DNA of 64,000 nt from Gemmatimonadota bacterium (GCA_965116475.1 OZ220691.1:3264001-3328000); one strand, 5' to 3'. Positions 21,595 through 34,573 are shown, counted from the stretch's first letter. The notes: generated by a model not told the origin, from the sequence alone. Translations and numbers: made by a program.

Positions 21595-24249
21595 TCAGTT
21601 CGAAGCGGCCACGGCCCGGTACCCGGCCGTGTCCCCGAGCTGGTAGTCCTCGCCGGTGACCTGGAGCACGCGGATCCGGTACTGGGAGATCCGGTCGCGG
21701 TCCGGCACCCGGAACCTTAGAAGCGGACCGTCCTCGAGCGGGCCCGCCACGACGATCCGGTGCTTCCCGGAAGCGGCGGAGTGGTAGAGTTCGAGACCGA
21801 CAGCAGCCTCGACCGCCTCGATTTCGGGACCTTCGAGTTCGAGCAGCACGCCGACGGCGCGGCCGGCCGCCGGCGCCGTCCACTCGACGGTCAGGAACCC
21901 GGGGCCTCGTGGCGTGGCTGCCGGCATGGGCAACTCGACGGCCTGCGCACCCGGCTCCCGCGCGGCGGCGGGCGGCCCCGCGAGATCGCCGGTGCACGAC
22001 CAGGCCGTGGCCGCGGCGAGCAACACGGCCAACACCGCTCCGCGCGCGCGGCGGCGCCCGGCACCCGGCCGTCCGCGGCGCCCGTGGGACCGCCGGCGTC
22101 CGGCGGCGGCTGCGCCGAGCAGGAAGAACGCCGGGGACGCGGCACCGGGCTCCCCGGGCGTGCCGCCGCAGTCGGCCTCGCCGCTCCGGCAGCGCTCGAT
22201 CCAGGCCATCAGATCGCCCAGGTCGTACTCTCCGTTCCGGTTGCCGAGGCGGTCGAGGGCGTCGAGCTGGGCCTCGCTCAGCTCGCGCTCGCCGAACAGC
22301 GCCTCGGACGCCTGCTCCGGCGTCAACCGGTCCACCAGCGCGAGCAGGGCGTCCAGGTCCGCCGCGTCCTGCGCGGCCGCGTCTTGCCCGGCCACGTCTT
22401 GCCCGGCCGCGTCTTGCCCGGCCACGTCTTGCCCGGCGACGTCGCCCGCGGACTGCGGGATCGTGACCCTGACGCTCGGGGTCGCCATCCCGGGCGGGCC
22501 GTAGTTGACCGCCTTGTGTCCGATCACCGCCGACGAGGCGGTCGCGTTCTGTGCCACGGTCACGGTCACCTCCTTGTACCTGAACCAGTCCGTTCTCCCG
22601 TAGGACACCGAGGTGGGCGACGCCGTGACGCCCGCGCTGTCCGGCTGCGGCTCGATCGCCGCGCCCGCCGGGGGGTGGTGGTTGAGGCGCATGCGGTACG
22701 CGCCCGATCCGCCGGGCGCGATCGTGAGCGCCGTCTCCGACACGACGACCCCGTGCTCGTAGACCGGGTTGTCGCTCAGCCGGAGCTGCCTGAGGTTGGC
22801 CAGCTCGTTGATCTCCTCGTACGGAAAGCTCGTCAGCTGGTTGTCGCGCAGATTGAGTTCCTCGAGCGCCGCCAGCCGGTCGAAGACGCCGGCGCGCAGC
22901 GACCGCAGGCGGTTGTCGTCGATGTCGAGTTCCCTGAGAAGCGTCAGCTGGTCGAAGACGTTCGCGGGCAGCGACGAGATCCGGTTGCCGTCCAGATCGA
23001 GCATGGTCAGCGCACTCAGGTCGTCGAAGATCCCCGTCGGCAGCGACGAGATCCGGTTCCCGCTCAGGTCGACCTCCGTCACCGCCGTCAGGCCGTCGAA
23101 GTCGCCCGCCTTGAGCGACGCGATGTTCAGGTGGTTCAGCCAGAGTCCGCCCGAGATGGACGCCAGGTCGTCCGCCGTCACCCCGCCGCAGCCCTTCGAG
23201 CCGCCCAGCCACCCCAGGATGGCGTCGCGCACCTGGGGCGTGCGGCCGCAGATGCCGCCCGACGGCGTCCCCCGCACCTCGCGCGACGACTCTCCCGGGC
23301 CGGCCCTGTTGACGGCCCGCACCGCGAAGCGGTACTCGCGGTCGTTCGCGAGGCCCCCGACCGTGTACGTCTCCATGTTCGCCCCGCCCGCGCCGCTGCC
23401 CGGGATGCCGCGCCAGCTTCCGCCGTCCACCCGGTAGTCGTGGCGGGTCACGGGCGCGCCGCCGTTGTACGGCGGGAACCCCGGGTCGTCGCCCGGCGCG
23501 GTCCAGCTCAGCGTCACCTCGCGGCTGCCCGGCACCGCGGTCAGGTCGACCGGCGCGTCCGGCGCCCTCGCCGTCACCGTGCCGTCGACGATGGTGACGG
23601 TGACGGACCCGATCGCGACCGTGCCGTGATGGGCGGCGATGACGACCGTCTCGTCGTCCTCGGACTCCGAGTCGGACAGCGCGGCGAGCGTGACGCCGCC
23701 CGTGGTCGCGCCCGCCGCGATCGTGATGTTCGGCTCCGACAGCGTGTAGTCGCTGCCGCTGGTCGCCGTCCCGCCCAGCTCCAGCGTGACCGTCTGGACC
23801 GTCTCGAAGGTCGAGCCGCTGGTCTGGACCCATAGCCGCGTCTCCTCGCCCTCCCGCAACGTCGTCACGTTCGTCCTGATCTCGAGGTCGATGTCGTCGT
23901 CGGCCACCCTCACCTGCACGCTGCGCGCGGTGACCGACCCGTAGTCGCCCCCGCTCACGGCGTGGGACACCGTCGCCTCGTCGGCGTTCTTGTCGACATC
24001 CTGCGCCGCGCTCACCGTCACCGGCTGCGCCGTGTCCCAGTCGCCGGGCGCGAACGTCAGCGTCGGCGGAGACGCCGTCACATCGGAGTCGCCGCTCACC
24101 GACACGCCGATCGTCACCGTGGCCGTCGGGCGCGATTCGAGCGCCACCCTGTAGGTGCCGCTGCCGCCCTCCTCGATCGAGAGCGCCGTCGCCGAGACCG
24201 CCACGCCGCGCGTGTCGTCGTCGGTGATCGTCACCGTCGCGTCCGTCAC
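21595..24249 (-). CDS. Giant surface protein, C-terminal segment (Calx-beta-like, FN3, LRR, EF-hand/dockerin-like motif, terminal beta-rich domain)
   Basis: FN3 (APDAPVDLTAVPG..VTLSW..YRFAVRAVN), CGRTPQVRDAI + LxxLxLxxN repeats, DRLGNRNGEYDLGDL. Continues the upstream ORF through a frameshift at ~24250-24260. Confidence 0.85.
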   Translation of the reverse strand: MTDATVTITDDDTRGVAVSATALSIEEGGSGTYRVALESRPTATVTIGVSVSGDSDVTASPPTLTFAPGDWDTAQPVTVSAAQDVDKNADEATVSHAVSGGDYGSVTARSVQVRVADDDIDLEIRTNVTTLREGEETRLWVQTSGSTFETVQTVTLELGGTATSGSDYTLSEPNITIAAGATTGGVTLAALSDSESEDDETVVIAAHHGTVAIGSVTVTIVDGTVTARAPDAPVDLTAVPGSREVTLSWTAPGDDPGFPPYNGGAPVTRHDYRVDGGSWRGIPGSGAGGANMETYTVGGLANDREYRFAVRAVNRAGPGESSREVRGTPSGGICGRTPQVRDAILGWLGGSKGCGGVTADDLASISGGLWLNHLNIASLKAGDFDGLTAVTEVDLSGNRISSLPTGIFDDLSALTMLDLDGNRISSLPANVFDQLTLLRELDIDDNRLRSLRAGVFDRLAALEELNLRDNQLTSFPYEEINELANLRQLRLSDNPVYEHGVVVSETALTIAPGGSGAYRMRLNHHPPAGAAIEPQPDSAGVTASPTSVSYGRTDWFRYKEVTVTVAQNATASSAVIGHKAVNYGPPGMATPSVRVTIPQSAGDVAGQDVAGQDAAGQDVAGQDAAAQDAADLDALLALVDRLTPEQASEALFGERELSEAQLDALDRLGNRNGEYDLGDLMAWIERCRSGEADCGGTPGEPGAASPAFFLLGAAAAGRRRSHGRRGRPGAGRRRARGAVLAVLLAAATAWSCTGDLAGPPAAAREPGAQAVELPMPAATPRGPGFLTVEWTAPAAGRAVGVLLELEGPEIEAVEAAVGLELYHSAASGKHRIVVAGPLEDGPLLRFRVPDRDRISQYRIRVLQVTGEDYQLGDTAGYRAVAASN
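22361..22447 (-). repeat. 15-bp tandem repeat encoding (AGQDV/AGQDA)n linker
   Basis: + strand gtcttgcccggcc(a/g)c, four near-perfect copies plus degenerate flanking units. Confidence 0.9.
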
Positions 24250-27200
24250 GGTCGAGGCCTGGACACCGTGCCCGTGACCGTGACCGTCTCGTCGTCCTCG
24301 TCCACGTCGTCGTCCACCGGCGTCAGCGTCAGCGTGGCCGTCCCGCTCGTCGCGCCCGCCTCGATCGTCAGCGTGGCCGTGCCCGCCGTGAAGTCCGACG
24401 AAGCCGCCGTGCCCGCGCTCACCGACAGCGACACCGCCCGATCCGCCGCGAGCGCGGCGCCGTTCAGCTTTCCCGTCACCGACAGCGGCGTCTGACCCTC
24501 ACCCTCGCCCACCCGCCCGGGCATCACCGTCAGCGTCACGCCCGTCGACGGCGTGTCGTCGTCGGTGACGCGTATCTGCACGGAGGCGGCCGTGACGCCG
24601 TTGGCACCGTAGTCGCCGCCGCTCACCGTGTGGCTCACCGTCGCCGTGTCGCCGGCCGCGTCCACGTCCTGGGCCGCACGCACCGTCACCGTACGCGGCT
24701 CATCCCAGTCGCTGGTCGTGAACGCCAGCGACGGCGGGGACACCGTCACGTCCGCATCACCCGCCACCGAGACGCCCACCGTCACCGTGGCCGTAGGCTG
24801 CGACTCGAGCACCACCGTGTAGGTGCCGCTGCCGCCCTCGTCGAACTCGACCGACGTCTCCGACACCCCCACCCCGCGGGTGTCGTCGTCGGTGATCGTC
24901 ACCGTCGCGCCCGTGACGGTCAGGCCGCCGGACGCGGTGCCCGCCACCATGACCGTCTCGTCGTCCTCGTCGACGTCGTCGGACACCGGCGTCAGCGTCA
25001 GCGTCGCCATGCCGCTCGTCTGGCCCGTCACGATCGTCAGCATCGCCGTGCCCGCCGTGAAGTCCTCCGATGCCGATGCCGTCACCGGGCTCACCGACAG
25101 CGCCACCGTCCGGTCCTCCGTGAACGCCCCGCCGTTCAGCGTGCCGGTGACGCTCAGCGCCGTCTGCCCATCACCCTCGCCCACCTCTGCCGGCGACACC
25201 GAAAGCGTCACTCCCGTCGCCGCCATGACATGCCGCGTCACGACCACCGTGTAGGTCTTCCGCGTCACCCCGTCCTGGGCCGTCACCCTCACCTTGATCG
25301 TGTTCGCGCCCACTTCGAGCGCGACCTGGAACCCGTCCGCCGCGTCCGCGTCCACGAGCGCCTGGTCGCTGCCGTCGAGGTACGCGACCGTAGCCGAGAC
25401 ATGGCTCTTCACCGCGCTCAGCGTGGTCATCGCCACCGAGTGGGGCGCCGACCCCGTGTAGCTCGTCGAGTCCGGGTGGAACAGCGGCGTGAGCGTCACC
25501 CCGCTCAGGTTCAGCCCGCTCAGCCTCGCGTCGTCGGACGGCTGCCGCGTCACGACCACGACGTAGGTCTTCTGCGTCACCCCGTCCTGGGCCGTCACCC
25601 TGACCCCGATCGTGTTCGCGCCCACTTCGACCGCCACCTGGAACCCGTCCGCCGTACTCGCGTCCGTCAGCGCCTCGTCGCTGGCGTCCACGTACGCGAC
25701 CGTCGCCGAGGTGTGGCTGGTCGTCGCCTCCACCGTCGTCAAGGACACCGAGTGGGCGACCGTCGACGTGTAGTTCAGCGAATCCGTGTGGAACGTCGGC
25801 TCCAGCGTCACGCCGCTCAGCGTCAGCGCGCTCAGGCTCGCGTCCGTGGACGGGACGCGGTTCATTACCGTCTGAGCGGTGAAGGTGGCCGCGTCGTTGC
25901 CCGCCAGGTCCTGCACCGCGTTCGCGTCGTCGCCGGTGGTCGGGTCCATGTAGCCGACCGTCACCGTCTGGTCGCCCGCCACCGCCGACGCCGGGACCAA
26001 CAGCACCTCCAGCGCGGCCGGGTGGACACTGGTGACGGTCCGGGCCGTTCCGGCCACCGTTACCGTGAATGCGCTGGCCGGAGCCGTCGTCGTCTGGGAC
26101 AACTCTTCGTTGAAGTGGAGGTGGATGCCGATGCCGTCGGGCGTGGTCCTCGGCGCGTTCGTGCCGCTCGTCACCAGCGTCGGGCGCACGCCGTCCACCC
26201 TGTGGGTCGCGTCCGCCGCCACGGCCGCGTGCGCGATGAAGGCATCGCTCGTCGTCGAGCCCTTCCTCCGGATCGTCCCGCCGTTCAGCTCGAGTTCGTT
26301 CGCCGCGATCTCGATGCCGTCGTCGTCGGAGTCGTTCTCCGCCACCACGTAGCCCTTGAACAGCAGCGCGGTCGTGCCCGTCCCGGAGCTGTAGTCCAGC
26401 TGCTTGTCCGACCCGGCGACGTCGATGTCCAGCCGCGGCGTGCCCGTCACGTCCACGGAGTCGGTGAACGTCACCGTCACCGATACCGTGTCGCCGATGG
26501 CGTACGCCCCGTCCGTGCCCGCATCCGACAGCGCCAGCGAGGCGACCGCCGGCTCGACGTCGTTCCTCACCGTCTGCGCATCGAACGTCGCCGCGTCGTT
26601 GCCGGCCAAGTCCTGAATCGCGTTCGCGTCGTCGCCGGCCGTCGGGTCCATGTAGGCCACCGTCACCGTCTCGCCGGGGGCCACCGTCGACGCCAGGAAC
26701 AAGATCACTTGAGTATCGGACTGGTCGACAGTCCCGCGGAGGGTCCGGGGCGTTCCGTCCACCGTCACCGTGAATGCGCTGGCCGGCGCCGCCGTCGGGG
26801 ACAGATCTTCGCTGAAGTCGAGGTAGAGGCCACGGCCGCCGGGCGTGGTCCTCGGCGCGTTCGTGCCGCTCGTCACCAGCGTCGGGCGGATGCCGTCCAC
26901 CCGCAGGGCCGCATCGATGCCGACCTCGTCGGCCGTGTAGGTCGTGTCGGCGGCCAGGCCGTTCGGGCCCTCGAGCGTCGCGCCGTTCAGCGTCAGCTTG
27001 TTCGCGGCCACGCCGATCGCTCCGGCAATGCCCTCGGCGACCGGGTAGCGGCAGGTGAGTTGGGTCCCCGTCGCAGCGCCGCAGGTCGCCGTCCTCGTCG
27101 AGTCGCCGACAGTCAGCTCCAGCCGCGGCGTGCCGCCGGTCACGTCCAGCGTCAGGTCCTTCGTGAACGTCACCGCCAGGTCGATGGTGTCGGCGATGGC

Positions 27201-29831
27201 GTAGGTCGTGTCGCTCGGCGCGTCGATGACCGCCACCGAGGCGACCTCAGGCCCGGGAACCGCGATGAGTTTTACGGCGACCGGCTCGCCGTCCGACCAG
27301 GCCAGGCCGGGGTTGTCCCAATCGTGACTTTCTGTCCCCGTCGCCTCATCGAGGCGAAACTCCGTGCCGTCCAGGGCCAATACTAGGAGGTCGTCGGGCG
27401 CGGCGGAGATGCGGGATGACAGAAAATAGATCAGCTCGTTGTCGATAACAACATCATTAACGAGCGCTATCGAATGGGCGAGCACGAAAAGGGAATAGGG
27501 CGTTCCTCCATACTCGAACGTGTCGGACCTGGAAAGGCTGCCGACGACACCGTCCGTGGTTGACTCGTATCCGACAGTGTGTCCAACAAGAGGTCCTGAT
27601 GTTCGCATGGACGTCCCCACGGTCATTTCGACGGACCAAAGGACATCGCCCTCCGTACCCGGCCCCGCGTTGTTCGTGACCGTCTCTGCGGAGAACGTCG
27701 CCGCGTCGTTGCCCGCAGCGTCCTGTACCGCGTTCTCGTCGTTGCTTCCCGTCGGATCCATGTAGGCGACCGTCACCGTCTCGCCGGTGGCCACCGCGGA
27801 CGCCAGCACGAGCGTCACCGACGGGCCGGCCGCAACGACGCCGCCCGCAAAGACCGAGGTGACGCCACGCGTCGTTCCGTCCACCGTCACCGTGAACGCA
27901 CTCGTCGGCGCGGTGGCCGAGGACAGCACCTCGCTGAACGTCAGCAGCACTTTCTTGCCGTCGTTCGATGTCTTCGGCGCACCGTCGCCCGTCGTCACCA
28001 GCGTTGGCGCCACCAAGTCCACCCTGTTCGTCACCGTCTGCGCGGCAAAGGTCGCCGCGTCGTTACCCCCCGCGTCCTGCACCGCGTTCGCGTCGTCGCT
28101 CGCCGTCGGGTCCATGTAGGCGACCGTCACCGTGTCGCCGGTGGCCACTGCGGAGGCCAGCGTCAAGGTCACGTCCGTGCCGCTGGCGGAGACCGAGCTG
28201 ACGCCGCGCGTCGATCCGTTCACGCGCACCGTGAACGCGCTCGCCGGCGCCGTCGTCGCCGACAGCCTCTCGCTGAAGGTGAGGTCGATGATCGCACCGT
28301 TGGTCGAGGTGACCGCGCTCACGAACGTCGGGCGCACGCCGTCCACCCTGTGGGTCGCGTCCGCCGCCACGGCCGCGTGCGTGATGATGGCATTGATCGT
28401 CGTCGAGCCCTTCTTCCGGATCGTCCCGCCGTTCAGCTCGAGTTCGTTCGCCGCGATCTCGATGCCGTCCGTGTCTTCTTCGCTCTCCGCCACCACGTAG
28501 CCCTTGAACAGCAGCGCGGTCGTGCCCGTCCCGGAGCTGTAGTCCAGCGGCTTGTCCGACCCGGCGACGTCGATGTCCAGCCGCGGCACCCCCGCCACGT
28601 CCACGGAGTCAGTGAACGTCACCGTCACCGATACCGTGTCGCCGATCCCGTACGCCCCGTCCGTGCCCGCGTCCGACAGCGCCAGCGAGACGACTTCGGG
28701 CCCAACGACGTTCCTCACCGCCTGCGCGTCGAACGTCGCCGCGTCGTTGCCCGCCGCGTCCTGGACCGCGTTCGCGTCGTCGTTCGCCGTCGGGTCCATG
28801 TAGGCCACCGTCACCGTCTCGCCGGTCGTTACCGCCGGCGACAGAGTGAGAGCTACGGTCCGGTCGATCAGGTTCGCGGCGACGACTTCGACGGTCCTGG
28901 GCTGTCCGTCCACCGTCACCGTGAACGCGCTCGCCGGCGCCGTCGTCGTCGACAGCGTCTCGCTGAAGCGGAGGTCGATGGCCGACCCGCTCGCCGTGGT
29001 CTTCGGCGCACCCGTGCCGCTCGTCACCAGCGTCGGCCGCACCGCGTCCACCCGCAGGTCCGCATCGATGCCGACCTCGTCGGCCGTGTAGGTCGTGTCG
29101 GCGCTCAGTTCGCTCGGGCCCACAAGCGTCGCGCCGTTCAGCGTCAGCTTGTTCGCGGCCACGCCGATCGCTCCGGCAATGCCCTCGTCGACCGGGTAGC
29201 GGCAGGTGAGTTGGGTCCCCGCGGCGATGAGGCAGGTCGCCGTCCTCGTCGAATCGCCGACCGTCAGTTCCAGGCCCGGCGTGCCGCCGCTCACGTCCAG
29301 CGTCAAGTCCTCGCTGAACGTCACCGCCAGATCGATGGTGTCGGCGATCGCGTAGGTGTCGTCGCTCGGGGCGTCGACGACCGAGATCGAGGTGACCTTT
29401 GGCGGGGAAACCGCAATGAGCTTCACGGCGACCGGCTCGCCATCCGACCAGGTCAGCCCGGGATTGCTCCAATTGAAGCCGATTGTGCCTGTCTCCGGCT
29501 GACTGACTTGATTCGCCTCACCGAGCCGGAACTGCGTCCCGTCCAGATCCAAGATCAGCAGATCAGCGGGGGCGGTCGGAAAGGTATTTGGCAGTTGCAG
29601 TACCAAAGCGGATTGTTCGTTCCGCGACGTCACAGTGATGTCCACCACCGTATAGTCTGTTCCCCCGTACGAGAACTTTGTAGATCCTGAAATCCTGCCA
29701 ATAAGGCCGAGCAGTCCCTTTCCGTATCCGGCTGTGGAGAACACGTCACTGCCAATGTCAACTGTATCCGACCCCACGATCATGTCGACGGACCAGATGG
29801 TGTCGCCCCGCGCGGGGTAGATCTCGGGCAC
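24246..29831 (-). CDS. Giant surface protein, central segment (SwmB-like repeats, Ig-like, cadherin-like beta-sandwich, Calx-beta-like domains)
   Basis: Repeats TVTVAYMDPT..DDANAVQDAAGNDAATF, 2x DASLSALTLS..VTAQDGVT.KTY.VVVTR, ITDDDT; T/V/A/D-rich. Frame is open upstream to ~29895. Confidence 0.88.
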   Translation of the reverse strand: MPEIYPARGDTIWSVDMIVGSDTVDIGSDVFSTAGYGKGLLGLIGRISGSTKFSYGGTDYTVVDITVTSRNEQSALVLQLPNTFPTAPADLLILDLDGTQFRLGEANQVSQPETGTIGFNWSNPGLTWSDGEPVAVKLIAVSPPKVTSISVVDAPSDDTYAIADTIDLAVTFSEDLTLDVSGGTPGLELTVGDSTRTATCLIAAGTQLTCRYPVDEGIAGAIGVAANKLTLNGATLVGPSELSADTTYTADEVGIDADLRVDAVRPTLVTSGTGAPKTTASGSAIDLRFSETLSTTTAPASAFTVTVDGQPRTVEVVAANLIDRTVALTLSPAVTTGETVTVAYMDPTANDDANAVQDAAGNDAATFDAQAVRNVVGPEVVSLALSDAGTDGAYGIGDTVSVTVTFTDSVDVAGVPRLDIDVAGSDKPLDYSSGTGTTALLFKGYVVAESEEDTDGIEIAANELELNGGTIRKKGSTTINAIITHAAVAADATHRVDGVRPTFVSAVTSTNGAIIDLTFSERLSATTAPASAFTVRVNGSTRGVSSVSASGTDVTLTLASAVATGDTVTVAYMDPTASDDANAVQDAGGNDAATFAAQTVTNRVDLVAPTLVTTGDGAPKTSNDGKKVLLTFSEVLSSATAPTSAFTVTVDGTTRGVTSVFAGGVVAAGPSVTLVLASAVATGETVTVAYMDPTGSNDENAVQDAAGNDAATFSAETVTNNAGPGTEGDVLWSVEMTVGTSMRTSGPLVGHTVGYESTTDGVVGSLSRSDTFEYGGTPYSLFVLAHSIALVNDVVIDNELIYFLSSRISAAPDDLLVLALDGTEFRLDEATGTESHDWDNPGLAWSDGEPVAVKLIAVPGPEVASVAVIDAPSDTTYAIADTIDLAVTFTKDLTLDVTGGTPRLELTVGDSTRTATCGAATGTQLTCRYPVAEGIAGAIGVAANKLTLNGATLEGPNGLAADTTYTADEVGIDAALRVDGIRPTLVTSGTNAPRTTPGGRGLYLDFSEDLSPTAAPASAFTVTVDGTPRTLRGTVDQSDTQVILFLASTVAPGETVTVAYMDPTAGDDANAIQDLAGNDAATFDAQTVRNDVEPAVASLALSDAGTDGAYAIGDTVSVTVTFTDSVDVTGTPRLDIDVAGSDKQLDYSSGTGTTALLFKGYVVAENDSDDDGIEIAANELELNGGTIRRKGSTTSDAFIAHAAVAADATHRVDGVRPTLVTSGTNAPRTTPDGIGIHLHFNEELSQTTTAPASAFTVTVAGTARTVTSVHPAALEVLLVPASAVAGDQTVTVGYMDPTTGDDANAVQDLAGNDAATFTAQTVMNRVPSTDASLSALTLSGVTLEPTFHTDSLNYTSTVAHSVSLTTVEATTSHTSATVAYVDASDEALTDASTADGFQVAVEVGANTIGVRVTAQDGVTQKTYVVVVTRQPSDDARLSGLNLSGVTLTPLFHPDSTSYTGSAPHSVAMTTLSAVKSHVSATVAYLDGSDQALVDADAADGFQVALEVGANTIKVRVTAQDGVTRKTYTVVVTRHVMAATGVTLSVSPAEVGEGDGQTALSVTGTLNGGAFTEDRTVALSVSPVTASASEDFTAGTAMLTIVTGQTSGMATLTLTPVSDDVDEDDETVMVAGTASGGLTVTGATVTITDDDTRGVGVSETSVEFDEGGSGTYTVVLESQPTATVTVGVSVAGDADVTVSPPSLAFTTSDWDEPRTVTVRAAQDVDAAGDTATVSHTVSGGDYGANGVTAASVQIRVTDDDTPSTGVTLTVMPGRVGEGEGQTPLSVTGKLNGAALAADRAVSLSVSAGTAASSDFTAGTATLTIEAGATSGTATLTLTPVDDDVDEDDETVTVTGTVSRPRP

Positions 29832-30481
29832 GACGCTGTTGTTTGTGACCGTCTCCGCTGAGAACGTCGCGGCGTCGTTGCCGGCCGCGTCCTCGCACGG
29901 CGTTCGCGTCGTCGTCCGCGCTCGGATCGGTGTAGGCGACCGTCACCGCCTGGCCTGTGGCCACCGCGCTCAGCACCAGCGTCACCGTCACCGACGCGCC
30001 GCTCGCCGAGACCGAGTAGACGCCGTCGGGCCGATCGGTGGCCACCATTACCGTGAACGCGGAGTCGTCGGCGCCGCGGCCGCCGACAGCGTCTCGCTGA
30101 ACGTCAGAGCACGATCTGCGTGCCGTCGGCCGAGGTGGCCGCGCTCACGAATGTCGGCGGGGCGAGGTCCACGGTGTTCGTCACCGTCTGCGCGGCAAAG
30201 GTCGCCGCGTCGTTACCCCCCGCGTCTTGCACCGCGTTCGCGTCGTCGCTCGCCGTCGGGTCCATGTAGGCGACCGTCACCGTGTCGCCGGTGGCCACTG
30301 CGGAGGCCAGCGTCAAGGTCACGTCCGTGCCGCTGGCGGAGACCGAGCTGACGCCGCGCGTCGATCCGTTCACGAGCACCGTGAACGAGCTCGCCGGCGC
30401 CGTCATCGAGGACAGCAGTTCGCTGAACGTGATGGCGATCTCGGTGCCGTCGGTCGAGGTGGCCGCGCTCACGAACGTCGG
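26178..30481 (-). repeat. ~2.15 kb intragenic tandem duplication (units ~26178-28326 and ~28327-30481)
   Basis: Near-identical blocks at a constant ~2150 offset, e.g. 26178/28327, 27280/29431, 28021/30171, 28315/30464. Confidence 0.85.
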
Positions 30482-30778
30482 ACTGGCCTTGTAGCTGACG
30501 GAGCGCCCGGTCGGGCTTCCCGCGCGCTCGGAAGGGCTGGACCCGGCGCTACCGACGGACCCGGGCGCCTCCGCCTCCATGTCGGTCTGCGCATGCGCGG
30601 CGCGCGCGCCCACGAGCAGGGCGACACCCGCCAGCAGGACGGCCGTCAGGCGGCGGCCCCCGGCCCGCGAACAGGCCGAGCCCGGCCACGGCGGGGCGGG
30701 AAGGATCGGGCGGGCGGATGCCGCGCGAGGCCGATGGGCCCCCGAATCTTCCTCGGCAGGAAAAACCGCTGGGCTCAT
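29832..30778 (-). CDS. Giant surface protein, N-terminal segment (signal peptide + SwmB-like repeats), broken by three frameshifts at ~29895-30110
   Basis: RRLTAVLLAGVALLVGARAAHA|Q signal; SwmB-like repeat text continues across frames (VL*/LTFSE, PT/SAFTV, AV/QDAAGND). Confidence 0.75.
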
Positions 30779-30834
30779 CTCTCGTATGTGGGAATCGCCG
30801 TTCGACACGCGCGGCCTCCTCGCTCCGAGTTGGA

Positions 30835-30867
30835 TTGTGGTCGATAACTGGTAGTTATCAACCGCAA
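30835..30867. other. lox-like recombination site L (13-7-13)
   Basis: TTGTGGTCGATAA-CTGGTAG-TTATCAACCGCAA; arms 11/13 dyad; 27 bp (30839-30865) is the exact reverse complement of 31996-32022. Confidence 0.8.
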
Positions 30868-30968
30868 CCCGGTCGCACTTATCGCCTTGTTCCAGAGTCA
30901 CTTATGCAGATTGCGGCACCGGAAAACAGTGAGCGGTCACAACCGCCCGGCCACTGGGCGGTCACGCA

Positions 30969-31927
30969 TGGATGAGCGCCGGTGCGGGGATCCGGAGGCC
31001 GCCGCCGGCCTCCTCGGCGAGTACCTGGCCGCCGCCGCCGACGGCTCGCTGAGCGGCAACACCGTGCGGGCGCTGAGGGGGGACCTTCAGCGGTTCGCGG
31101 CGTGGTGCGCGGAACGGGATCTCTGTCCGCTGCCCGCGCGCGCGGGGACGGTCGTGGCCTACATCGAAGAGGTGTCGGGCGACCGCGCGCCCGCCACCGT
31201 GAGGCGCCATGTCTCGAGCATCGCCGCCGTGCACAAGGCGGCCGGGGAGCGGAGCCCTTCGGAGCATGCCGCGGTGCGGCGCGCCCTCACGCGGATGCGG
31301 CGGCGGAAAGGGTCCCGGCAGACGCAGGCGCTGGGCCTGACCTGGACGCTCCGCCGGCGCCTGATCGAGGGCGGGGGCTCCCGACTCATCGACGTCCGCA
31401 ACCGCGCGATCCTGGCCGTGGCCTACGACGCCATGCTGCGCCGCTCCGAGCTCGTCGCGCTCGAAGTCGTTGATGTGAAGGTGGATAGGGGAGGATCGGC
31501 CTCCGTCCTCGTGCGCCGGGCGAAGAACGATCCGGAGGGCGGCGGGGCGGTGCTGTACCTACACCGCGACACCGTGAGGATGCTCAGGGAGTGGCTCGGC
31601 GCGAGCGGGGTCGGCAACGGGCCGCTCTTCCGCGCGGTGCGCAAGGACGGGCGCGTCGGCGCGGCTCTCCATCCGGGCCAGGTGCCGCGCATCTACAAGG
31701 CCATGGCCCGGCACGCCGGGCTTCCGCCGGAGGTGGTGCGCCGGCTCTCCGGGCACAGCCCGCGGGTAGGCGCGGCGCAGGACATGATCGCCTCGGGCAT
31801 CGAGCTGCCGGCGATCATGCAGGCCGGGCGCTGGAGGAACGTCCGCATGGTCCAGCGCTACGGCGAGCGCCTGCTCGCGAAGCGCAACGGAGCCGCCCAG
31901 CTGGCCCGGCTCCAGAAGCGCCGCTAG
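30969..31927 (+). CDS. Cre-like tyrosine recombinase
   Basis: N-terminal core-binding domain (NT.RA...L..F..WC); catalytic R (MLRRSE), K (RAKND), HxxR (SGHSPRVGAA), W (GRW), Y (VQRY). C-terminus parallels Cre SGHSARVGAARDM..IMQAGGW. Confidence 0.93.
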
Positions 31928-31993
31928 AGATACGCCGGGCACGGATATTTTGGACGGATGACTCCGGCGGGTTATCGTTGCCACCGGGTACGA

Positions 31994-32026
31994 TAGCGGT
32001 TGATAACTACCAGTTATCGACCTCTA
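31994..32026. other. lox-like recombination site R (13-7-13), inverted relative to L
   Basis: TAGCGGTTGATAA-CTACCAG-TTATCGACCTCTA; arms 11/13 dyad; spacer is the reverse complement of the site L spacer. Confidence 0.8.
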
Positions 32027-32093
32027 TTTTTTCAAGATACGCGCTATTTAGTGAGCGGACTGTGACCCATCGGACGGAGCTCGTGGCCCGTTC

Positions 32094-32122
32094 GTGACTT
32101 TTCCCGCAAATCGCGCTATCCT
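32094..32122 (+). promoter_or_regulatory. Possible sigma70 promoter for the hybrid regulator
   Basis: GTGACT-17 bp-TATCCT, ~95 bp upstream of GGAG-TTG at 32216. Confidence 0.35.
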
Positions 32123-32215
32123 CCACTCCCCCCGGTCCGGCGAACCCTCGCCCGACCGACCGGCCGGAGCCTGGCTTTGCGGCTCCGCCTCACCTCTTGG
32201 CAAGCGAGTGGAGCC

Positions 32216-34573
32216 TTGGGCGATTCGGACCCTGCGGCACGCGATGGCGGAGCGTCCTGGGACCGCGCATCGCGGCTGAGCGCGGCGATCCTGCGCATCA
32301 GCCGGAGCCTCGACCTGGGCACCGTGCTCGAGGAGGTGGTCGAGAGCGCGCGGACTCTGACGGGAGCCCGCATCGGCGTGATCACGATGATCGACTCCTC
32401 GGGCCGGGTCGAGGACTTCGTCATCTCCGGCCCGGCGCCGGAGGAGCGCCGGAAGATGGTGGAGTGGCCCGACGGGCCGCGGCTGTTCGCACTCCTTCGC
32501 GACCTACCGGGGCCGGTGCGGGTGGCGGAGGTGGACGACTACCTGCGCGCGCTCGGCCTGTCGCCGAACCCCTGGGGCTCGAAGACGATGCAGGCCACAC
32601 CGATGCACCGGCACGGCGAGCACCTGGGAAGCTTCTTTCTGGCCGACAAGGAGGACGGGCAGGCGTTCACGAGCGCCGACGAGGAGATCCTGGTGCTGTT
32701 CGCCTCGCAGGCCGCCGCGGCGATCGCGAACGCACGGACGCACCGCGGCGTCGCGCGGGCGCGGGCCGACCTCGAGGCCCTGGTCGAGACGTCGCCGGTG
32801 GGCGTGCTGGTGTTCGAGGCCGGCACCGGCCGCATGATGTCGGTCAACCGCGCGGCCGAGCGCATCGTCGAGCCGATCCGCACTCCGGGCTCCCCCCCGG
32901 AGCAGCTGCTGGGGGTGTTGACGTGCCGGCGTGCCGACGGGCGGGAGTTCTCGCTGGCGAAACTCCCCATCGCCCGGCAGTTCGAGATCGACGGCGCCTC
33001 GCCGGTGCGCGCCGAGGAGGTCGAGCTGTCGGTGCCGGACGGGCGGAGCGTGCGGACGCTCCTCAACGCGACCCCGATCGTATCGGAGTCCGGCGAGCTC
33101 GTCTCGATCGTCGTCACCATGCAGGACCTCGAGCCGCTCGAGGAGCTGGAGCGGCAGCGGGCCGAGTTCCTCGGCATGGTGAGTCATGAGCTGCGCGCGC
33201 CGCTCACCTCGATCAAGGGCTCGGCCGCGACCGTGCTCGACGCCGAGCCGCTCCCCTCGCAGGCCGAGATGGTGCAGTTCTTCCGCATCATCGGCGGGCA
33301 GGCCGACCACATGAGGGGCCTGATCGCGGATCTGCTGGACGCGGGGAGCATCGCGGCGGGCACGCTCACCGTGCAGCCCGAGCCCTCGCACGTCGGCACG
33401 CTGCTGGACCGGGCCCGCAACACGTTCCTGAGCGGCGGAGGCCGGCAGGCCGTCCTGATCGACCTGCCGCCCGACCTGCCGCCGGCGATGGCCGACCGCG
33501 AGCGCTTCGTGCAGGTCTTGAACAACCTGCTGTCCAACGCCGCCCGGCACTCGCCTCCGACGTCGGAGATCCGCATCGAGGCCTCGCGCGAGGGCACCTG
33601 CGTCGCGGTCTCGGTCTCCGACCAGGGCCGGGGGATCCCGCCCGACCGGATTCCGCACCTCTTCCGCAAGCGCGCCAGCCCGGCGGAAGGCACCGGGCTC
33701 GGCCTCGCCATCTGCAAGGGACTCGTCGAGGCGCACGGCGGCCGCATCCGCGCCGAGAGCGGCGGGAGGGGCCGCGGCGCCCGCTTCACGTTCACGCTTC
33801 CCGCGGCCACCGACGCCCCGCCCGAGACGGGCGCGGACGCCGAGCCGCCCCACCGCCAGGGGTGCAAGACGCGCATCCTGGTGGTGGACGACGACCCGCA
33901 CACGCTGCGCTACGTGCGCGACACGCTCTCCGACGCCGGCTACGCCCCGGTCGTGACCGGCGAGCCCGACGAGATCTCGCGCATCATCCGCGCCGAGCGG
34001 CCCGACCTCGTGCTGCTCGACCTCATCCTCCCCGAAACCGACGGAATCGAGTTGATGAACAACGTCCCCGCGCTCGCCGACCTCCCGGTCATCTTCATCT
34101 CCGGCTACGGCCGCGACGAGACGATCGTCAAGGCGCTCGCGAGCGGCGCCGCCGACTACATCGTCAAGCCGTTCTCGCCGACCGAACTCGTCGCCCGCGT
34201 ACAGGCGGCGCTCCGCGCCCGCGCACGGCCCGAGACCTTCGCGCACGGACAACTGGTCGTCGACTACGGCCAGCGCCGCGTGAGCGTGGCCGGCCGCGAG
34301 GTCAGGCTCACCGCCAACGAGTTCGAACTGCTGCGCGTCCTGTCGGCCGGCGGCGGACGGCTCGTGACCACCGAGGCGCTGCTGCGGCAGGTGTGGGGAC
34401 GCCGGGGCTCCGACGACACCGACCGCGTCCGCACCGCCATCAAGAAGCTCCGCCGCAAGCTCGGCGACCGCGCGGCCGAACCGACCTACATCTTCAACGA
34501 GCGCGGCGTCGGCTACCGCTTCGCGAGGCCGGGACCGGTCGCATCCGCCGGGCATCCGCCGCGGCAGCGATAG
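32216..34573 (+). CDS. Single-chain hybrid regulator GAF-PAS-HisKA-HATPase-REC-OmpR-type wHTH
   Basis: GAF (FT..DEEIL.LFASQAA), PAS (LVETSPVGV), SHELRAPL, NLLSNA..D.GRG..GTGLGL, VVDDD..LLD..KPF, LT..EFELL..LRRKL...RGVGYR. No TM segment; TTG start after GGAG. Confidence 0.92.
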   Translation: MGDSDPAARDGGASWDRASRLSAAILRISRSLDLGTVLEEVVESARTLTGARIGVITMIDSSGRVEDFVISGPAPEERRKMVEWPDGPRLFALLRDLPGPVRVAEVDDYLRALGLSPNPWGSKTMQATPMHRHGEHLGSFFLADKEDGQAFTSADEEILVLFASQAAAAIANARTHRGVARARADLEALVETSPVGVLVFEAGTGRMMSVNRAAERIVEPIRTPGSPPEQLLGVLTCRRADGREFSLAKLPIARQFEIDGASPVRAEEVELSVPDGRSVRTLLNATPIVSESGELVSIVVTMQDLEPLEELERQRAEFLGMVSHELRAPLTSIKGSAATVLDAEPLPSQAEMVQFFRIIGGQADHMRGLIADLLDAGSIAAGTLTVQPEPSHVGTLLDRARNTFLSGGGRQAVLIDLPPDLPPAMADRERFVQVLNNLLSNAARHSPPTSEIRIEASREGTCVAVSVSDQGRGIPPDRIPHLFRKRASPAEGTGLGLAICKGLVEAHGGRIRAESGGRGRGARFTFTLPAATDAPPETGADAEPPHRQGCKTRILVVDDDPHTLRYVRDTLSDAGYAPVVTGEPDEISRIIRAERPDLVLLDLILPETDGIELMNNVPALADLPVIFISGYGRDETIVKALASGAADYIVKPFSPTELVARVQAALRARARPETFAHGQLVVDYGQRRVSVAGREVRLTANEFELLRVLSAGGGRLVTTEALLRQVWGRRGSDDTDRVRTAIKKLRRKLGDRAAEPTYIFNERGVGYRFARPGPVASAGHPPRQR

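Follow-up and report, generated by a model that had tools for sequence, protein, structure and literature searches.

A Cre-type tyrosine recombinase gene in the genome of a Gemmatimonadota bacterium lies between two inverted lox-like sites of its own. Gene and sites make up a self-contained invertible cassette that probably serves as a phase-variation switch on the adjacent surface-protein operon. Related cassettes occur in many other bacterial genomes, some of them in flipped orientation, and the family as a whole is very probably a self-contained genetic flip switch. The host genome consists of a single contig of 3.62 Mb, and the window, i.e. the whole stretch of 64,000 nucleotides that was analysed, corresponds to G000:C1:3264001-3328000. 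Its features around the cassette are the following:

21611..34559, unstranded: whole module (operon, cassette and sensor-regulator), present in two copies of ~97% identity
21595..30778, minus strand: surface-protein operon of three genes, divergent from site L
24249-21595, minus strand: operon gene for an LRR plus fibronectin-III protein
29831-24246, minus strand: operon gene for a giant SWM-repeat/cadherin-like protein of 1861 aa
30778-30107, minus strand: first operon gene, for a small SWM-repeat protein
30835-30867, unstranded: site L, lox-like dyad TTGTGGTCGATAA-CTGGTAG-TTATCAACCGCAA, 33 bp
30868..30928, plus strand: recombinase leader, with the motifs TAT.TC.TTG ... CTTATGC.GATT kept across relatives (alignment of 28 loci)
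30929..31927, plus strand: Cre-family tyrosine recombinase gene, 332 aa from GTG 30929 or 319 aa (P0001) from ATG 30968
31950..31978, plus strand: candidate outward promoter, TTGGAC, 17 nt, TATCGT, at the recombinase-distal end and aimed through site R
31994-32026, unstranded: site R, which is site L inverted, with the spacer CTACCAG, 33 bp
32040..32125, plus strand: conserved tail outside the cassette, with the putative sensor-regulator promoter GTGACT (32094-32099), 17 nt, TATCCT (32117-32122)
32177..34573, plus strand: fused sensor-regulator with GAF, PAS, HisKA, HATPase, receiver and OmpR-type DNA-binding domains, start codon uncertain

Two inverted sites and the gene between them

The original prediction described two 33-bp sites, each an 11/13 dyad, that share 27 bp of perfect inverted identity. 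Direct reading of the sequence confirmed both dyads at 30835-30867 and 31994-32026, with a 13-7-13 layout. The 27-bp core GGTCGATAACTGGTAGTTATCAACCGC is present exactly twice in the 64-kb window, at 30839-30865 on the plus strand and at 31996-32022 on the minus strand, while 100 dinucleotide-preserving shuffles of the window gave a mean and a maximum of 0; the perfect inverted identity is thereby borne out. A repeat finder returned inverted arms of 32 nt with 94% identity and 1130 nt between them. The outer arm of site L faces the surface-protein operon and its inner arm the 5' end of the recombinase gene, and counterparts of site L are located upstream of the recombinase in relatives too. In both sites, G-A-T-A adjoins the spacer.

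The 7-bp spacer, predicted to be asymmetric, is inverted between the two sites, but its asymmetry is confined to the centre. The dyad continues for two bases into the spacer on each side (GATAACT-GGT-AGTTATC), so that only the central GGT/ACC is asymmetric and alone gives the site its direction. The self-complementary outer bases that had also been pointed out (TT..AA versus TA..TA) are present in the sequence, but they look like chance: they depend on a single base that distinguishes the two inner arms, and the relative L005, at 90% identity, does not share it. Site R is followed by a T-run, and the two together, 31998-32022 plus TCTATTTTTT, give a terminator-like match that resembles an intrinsic terminator acting on transcripts that run rightward. 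Eight relatives of the window's subclade likewise have a T-rich stretch downstream of site R, and there is no T-run beside site L in either direction. A search of 30600-32400 against Rfam gave zero matches.

The only convincing open reading frame between sites L and R encodes a tyrosine recombinase, with Pfam matches to Phage_integrase (2.7e-15) and to a SAM-like N-terminal domain (7e-05). When PDB sequences were searched with phmmer, the best 17 matches were Cre or Cre-derived proteins (E 9.4e-30 to 1.5e-27, query residues 29-308), followed by XerD with an E-value of 5e-05. The kinship with Cre covers both the N-terminal and the catalytic domain. Residues R158, K186, H263, R266, W289 and Y298 (P0001 numbering) align with the six-residue catalytic set of Cre. 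Pfam, the PDB match and the alignment to Cre agree with the earlier claim that the sole gene between the sites is a recombinase with a full R-K-H-R-W-Y set. Membership in the XerC, XerD or XerA families was rejected, as the NCBIfam scores were 44.6, 41.9 and 43.4 bits against cut-offs of 335, 330 and 220 bits, respectively. Since the GTG start at 30929 is aligned across relatives and several homologues are 332 aa long, the protein probably has 332 rather than 319 residues.

The conserved leader of the recombinase gene is probably its own promoter or regulatory region. A leftward promoter within this leader was considered and dismissed, as neither inspection by eye nor a script found a properly spaced sigma-70-like pair. 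A 23-codon open reading frame (30904-30975) begins in the leader at the conserved CTTATGC motif and, at its end, overlaps ATG 30968 out of the recombinase frame. Its ATG is kept in relatives and the reading frame is not (in L056, a stop follows after 6 codons), so that CTTATGC probably matters as a motif in the DNA and does not mark a leader peptide. At the other end of the gene, a terminator hairpin downstream of the stop codon was discarded as well, because folding resembled that of shuffled sequences in most of 18 loci (z -3.1 to +1.1).

Conservation of the site pair in relatives

A protein search detected 1555 proteins at E <= 0.001 among 8000 scored candidates, and the 120 matches listed are 67-99% identical. 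The locus set used here comprises the best 80 of 148 stretches that encode relatives in species-representative genomes. Recombinases in these best 80 loci are 57-90% identical, with up to six copies per genome. According to public record labels, their hosts are mostly sponge-associated MAGs from several phyla, including Gemmatimonadota (Ca. Palauibacter, Longimicrobiales), Vicinamibacterales, Latescibacterota, Alphaproteobacteria, Caldilineaceae, Poribacteria and others.

An inverted lox-like dyad pair flanks the recombinase in 70 of these best 80 loci, and several of the other 10 are interrupted by a contig end or an insertion. With a stricter site finder, both sites were located in 56 of 81 loci (the best 80 plus the window). 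Their spacers are exact reverse complements in 55 of the 56 and carry a one-base mismatch in the remaining one, and a direct orientation was found in none (0/56). Among the 56 loci, 14 different spacer sequences occur and the arms vary between subclades; the spacer measures 7 bp in the window's subclade versus 6 bp in most relatives. As a control, 42 of 62 metagenome loci were tested for flanking repeats, after 20 with cut matches or matches below ~200 residues had been dropped. The site pair was present in 7 of 9 of these relatives at >=57% identity and in 0 of 33 at <=50% identity. The site pair thus accompanies the enzyme and diverges along with it, which is the behaviour to be expected of a recombinase and its target. 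A pattern scan of metagenomes for the site core gave 0 matches.

Of 114 genomes of the family, only 5 carry close copies of the recombinase (E <= 1e-60), all of them in the window's genus (4 of 35 others), and copies of 57-79% identity occur in other orders and phyla. This patchy distribution is consistent with horizontal transfer. A homologue of the sensor-regulator, 68-89% identical, follows the cassette in 41 of the 80 loci and lies on the opposite side in 3.

An alphaproteobacterial variant (L059-L083) has a different layout, with ~315 bp between the recombinase stop codon and site R (e.g. L063:4951-5301). It shows an invariant TTGACAAT directly before site R, a conserved flank of its own after site R, and an extra single arm inside the cassette (L063:5085-5102). 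This variant has no sensor-regulator, and giant fn3/Calx-beta/cadherin-like genes still diverge from its site L.

Natural inversions in the cassette family

Comparison of related loci reveals both orientations, and inversion within the family is shown at the level of these genome alignments. Between the cassettes L046 and L040, which belong to two Longimicrobiales genomes, the interiors are collinear (92% over 1146 nt), while the right flank of L046 matches the inverted left flank of L040 (96.6%) and its left flank the inverted right flank (88.7%). Likewise, L056 and L035 are collinear in the interior (96.5%), with inverted flanks of 3.0 kb (97.4%) and 1.5 kb (98.6%). L044 is located in the same genome as L056, and the two share a regulator flank that is 99.7% identical over 700 nt and joined to opposite cassette ends. 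In L056 and L044, inner and outer arms are distinct, and the flipped junction combines the outer arm of one site with the inner arm of the other. This mixed-arm junction places the exchange within the GATAA-spacer-TTATC core. Exchange within the site core is the signature of strand exchange by tyrosine recombinases. The original prediction had called for both orientations in related genomes with a breakpoint in the spacer, and L046/L040 together with L056/L035/L044 provide them, with the exchange in the core.

The flipped relatives differ between genomes or between duplicated loci, not within one sampled population. Of the three flipped loci, two appear degenerate, as L035 carries an insertion beside the recombinase and L040 a broken sensor-regulator. 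The insertion in the flipped copy L035 is ~1.4 kb long (L035:2520-3954), lies between site L and the recombinase leader, and may have locked that switch. The natural inversions attest to the activity of the family and are silent on the need for helper proteins. Spacer orientation was tried and abandoned as a marker of the switch state, as the two-fold symmetry makes both states alike, and L040 and L046 agree in it.

For the window, the claim of a ~1.16-kb invertible cassette is upheld by its flipped relatives, but the locus itself is seen in the assembled orientation only. This holds for both copies in the genome and for the Logan contigs from three public runs; a contig that covers 30358-32299 agrees with the assembly throughout. 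A Hi-C run of raw reads contributed 0 reads at the locus. As contigs drop rare variants, such single-orientation contigs are no evidence against flipping, and from the behaviour of its relatives we infer that the window copy flips as well. L005 and L150, both close relatives, are oriented like the window.

Genomic setting of the cassette

The module is duplicated in the genome. The second copy (G000:C1:1471904-1484818) belongs to a 13-kb segmental duplication that covers exactly the operon, the cassette and the sensor-regulator. In the whole genome, the site pattern is present at four places, corresponding to two cassettes that point the same way at a distance of 1.8 Mb, and the genome holds no site copy outside these two cassettes. 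Independent insertion of the two cassettes was rejected, as their flanks are also ~97% identical over the 13 kb. Recombination among the four identical sites across this 1.8 Mb could in principle invert or delete a chromosome-scale segment. One short segment stands out between the copies: in the operon leader to the left of site L (30794-30829), 11 differences fall within ~35 nt, compared with ~1% in the surrounding 600 nt and 6 differences in the 1184 nt of the cassette. Contigs of run X8 carry 8 of the 11 differences of copy 2 in this segment.

On its left, the cassette borders the surface-protein operon, whose first start codon is 57 nt away from site L. On its right, the tail outside site R is conserved and contains the predicted sensor-regulator promoter. 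Pairs of GTGAG/GTGAC and GTGGC/GTGAC boxes, 11 bp apart, precede this promoter; the four GTGAC-like boxes in 32040-32240 form two pairs, and the proximal box doubles as the -35 element. GTGAC motifs recur at two distances beyond site R, 20-39 nt (37 of 42 loci) and 60-79 nt (39 of 42). A spacing of 11 bp within box pairs is characteristic of OmpR/PhoB-type binding. These direct repeats outside the sites are probably the boxes of the OmpR-type regulator. With a promoter of its own in the tail, the sensor-regulator would be expressed without need of the cassette.

The leader of the sensor-regulator gene also contains a conserved inverted repeat, CTCCACTC ... GAGTGGAG, for which there was no Rfam match. 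GTCAC motifs are conserved inside the cassette as well, one at ~95 nt from site L (38 of 42 loci) and another at ~20-30 nt before site R (34 of 42), which hints at binding of the cassette by the regulator. A third sensor-regulator in the genome (G000:C1:2692041-2694600) is 56% identical and has no cassette. It faces a divergent gene for a secreted protein across an AT-rich gap of ~190 bp, and this locus looks like the same arrangement minus the switch.

A proposed switch for the surface-protein operon

Inverted repeats bracket a segment that contains a site-specific recombinase, as in an inverton, and a switch function is probable. In the proposed mechanism, the Cre-family recombinase would bind the two lox-like dyads around its own gene, and strand exchange in the spacer would flip the 1.16-kb segment, since the asymmetric spacers are inverted. 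The cassette is placed within the divergent control region between the surface operon and the sensor-regulator gene with its own predicted promoter. In the assembled orientation, outward transcription from the candidate promoter, together with read-through, would halt at site R and its T-run, leaving the operon off. After a flip, the recombinase-distal end would face the operon via site L, which has no T-run, with the start codon 57 nt away, and the operon would be on. The layout thus suggests that outward transcripts are stopped on the regulator side and reach the surface operon after the flip. We infer both the on/off direction and the promoter from this layout.

Several observations bear on the promoter. 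Across 56 loci, the outward strand of the distal region has the highest promoter score, with a mean of 6.70 versus 5.3-5.6 for other strands and regions, a small margin given that shuffles score 5.4-6.0 and that the 56 loci are kin, not independent. Similar outward pairs occur at the same distance in several subclades. TTGGAC matches TTGACA at 3 of 6 positions, and an automated promoter scan did not list the pair at 31950-31978, which may be an outward promoter. The largest subclade (L011 type) has neither a TTG hexamer nor a T-run; therefore, these details of the switch cannot be general. Another candidate, TTGATA-16-CACAAT across site L, was picked out by the automated scan and would be active in either orientation; it was rejected, as it is not conserved in L006 and L007.

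The neighbours of site L are of one kind. Of the 67 loci with a site L, 53 have an outward open reading frame of >=300 aa (>=900 aa in 36 of them) that starts <=200 nt from this site, the median distance being 47 nt; with random positions, a rough control, the count was 92 of 365. The start of a giant gene so near to site L leaves little room for a promoter outside the cassette. The domains found in these neighbours are SWM, cadherin-like, Calx-beta, fibronectin-III and LRR. The orientation tally of 41 common versus 3 flipped among the 80 loci would fit assemblies that mostly capture the off state, and the dominant assembled orientation would then be the off state.

Alternative explanations

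The cassette could instead be a selfish or mobile element, in which the recombinase acts like a transposase, the dyads are terminal repeats, and inversion is a by-product with no regulatory role. We regard this as unlikely. Up to six copies per genome in several phyla, with recombinases 57-90% identical among the 80 loci, would suit such an element, as would the confinement of close copies to just 5 of 114 family genomes, all of one genus, and the observation that copies with differing left flanks become identical at the outer edge of site L. Tyrosine recombinases, however, invert rather than excise DNA between inverted sites with matching asymmetric spacers, which is the arrangement found here. 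No target-site duplication surrounds the sites, the two genomic copies reflect one 13-kb duplication and not separate insertions, conserved sequence continues for ~100 bp past site R, and no empty site turned up in passing. The context is also non-random, with giant outward genes at 53 of 67 loci and a sensor-regulator beside 44 of 80. Membership in the insertion sequences or transposons was likewise rejected, given the lack of a flanking direct repeat and the uniform surroundings of the cassette in relatives.

Several copies with identical sites per genome would also allow recombination between copies, with cassette exchange or large inversions re-pairing adhesin operons with regulators; that this is the main role appears highly unlikely. 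All four combinations of two left and two right flanks are represented by L011, L013, L014 and L016, and the regulator flank shared by L044 and L056 within one genome sits on opposite cassette ends. Yet the alternative right flank of L013 and L016 starts ~100 bp outside site R and not in the site, L046/L040 and L056/L035 are simple local inversions in which both flanks are kept, and in the window's genome both copies stay in line with their own flanks. Exchange between copies may take place alongside local flipping. That the palindromes are merely operators or terminator hairpins of the recombinase gene, the enzyme acting elsewhere, is scarcely credible. Dyads are typical of operators, and site R with its T-run fits a terminator pattern, but most relatives lack the T-run, site L has none either way, and the crossovers of the two natural inversions map inside the sites. 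The genome furthermore holds no other copy of the site, and the arms end in G-A-T-A by the spacer, as is reported for active Cre-type sites (PMC10250229). Operators of the neighbouring regulator, which the original prediction had itself set as an alternative, are unlikely too, as this regulator is of the OmpR type and its putative GTGAC boxes lie outside the sites.

Comparison with known recombination systems

Both the recombinase and its type of site are Cre-like. Phage P1 carries a single loxP site near cre, and loxP has a 13-8-13 layout and a sequence different from sites L and R. In the cassette, by contrast, two inverted sites bracket the gene itself, and the spacer has 7 bp by 13-7-13 counting (6 bp in most relatives) versus 8 bp in loxP. 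The cassette is also chromosomal, multi-copy and located beside surface-protein operons, unlike the phage- or plasmid-borne Cre/loxP. The known pairs share with it two ~13-bp inverted arms and a short asymmetric spacer beside the gene. They comprise Cre/loxP, Dre/rox, Vika/vox, VCre and the YR set of PMC10250229, and their enzymes are of the same family as the cassette recombinase. The YR study describes a G-A-T-A motif beside the spacer in active Cre-type sites, which the cassette sites share, and a site search restricted to 8-bp spacers (PMC10250229).

The Hin/hix H segment of Salmonella likewise encodes, within the stretch that inverts, the recombinase that flips it, and it adjoins a surface-protein gene. 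Hin, which controls flagellar phase variation in Salmonella, belongs to the serine invertases and depends on Fis and an enhancer, whereas the cassette enzyme is a tyrosine recombinase of the Cre kind. In the H segment, an outward promoter at one end is connected or cut off by inversion; the corresponding promoter of the cassette is only predicted. In fimS (FimB/FimE), the repeats are short (~9 bp), whereas the cassette has full two-armed sites. Both fimS and ipuS are short segments at the head of an adhesin gene that a tyrosine recombinase inverts for on/off control. Their recombinase genes lie outside a promoter-only element of ~0.3 kb, whereas the cassette flips the whole gene. The ipuS element, with IpuA/IpuB, controls the autotransporter UpaE in E. 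coli (PMC6083910). FLP/FRT of the yeast 2-micron plasmid likewise places a tyrosine recombinase gene between inverted targets of its own and flips itself. It is a eukaryotic plasmid copy-number device with 599-bp repeats. In contrast to the cassette, FLP/FRT is unlinked to the expression of neighbouring genes, and its sequence kinship is at the superfamily level only.

A literature search, with subscription journals mostly outside its coverage, turned up no account of cassettes of this kind, be it from sponge symbionts or from other bacteria, and within this scope the suggestion of a new system stands. The present analysis adds flipped copies with mapped crossovers, the link to a sensor-regulator, and a subclade with a 7-bp spacer as opposed to 6 bp.

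Implications for sponge-associated bacteria

A wider reading, to which we give somewhat less than even chances, is that of a portable phase-variation module. It would combine a Cre-type recombinase and the inverted sites belonging to it with an outward promoter, would have moved between unrelated phyla of sponge bacteria, and would switch giant eukaryote-like adhesin operons stochastically on and off, one per copy and often together with a sensor-regulator. If this holds, the design would be unusual, with a Cre-type enzyme encoded inside the segment that it flips and spread across phyla. As a by-product, it would offer dozens of natural recombinase/site pairs with >=14 spacers and two spacer lengths as candidates for orthogonal use. 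For genome engineering, the family represents many natural Cre-type enzyme/site pairs, with natural signs of activity in relatives, and its spacers of 6 and 7 bp lie outside the 8-bp search criterion of PMC10250229.

For the bacteria themselves, each adhesin operon would have one flip switch, the orientation of which could be read in long reads. Eukaryote-like surface proteins are thought to mediate contact with the host, and the cassette would, if the reading is true, provide a concrete mechanism for surface-protein variation in uncultured sponge symbionts.
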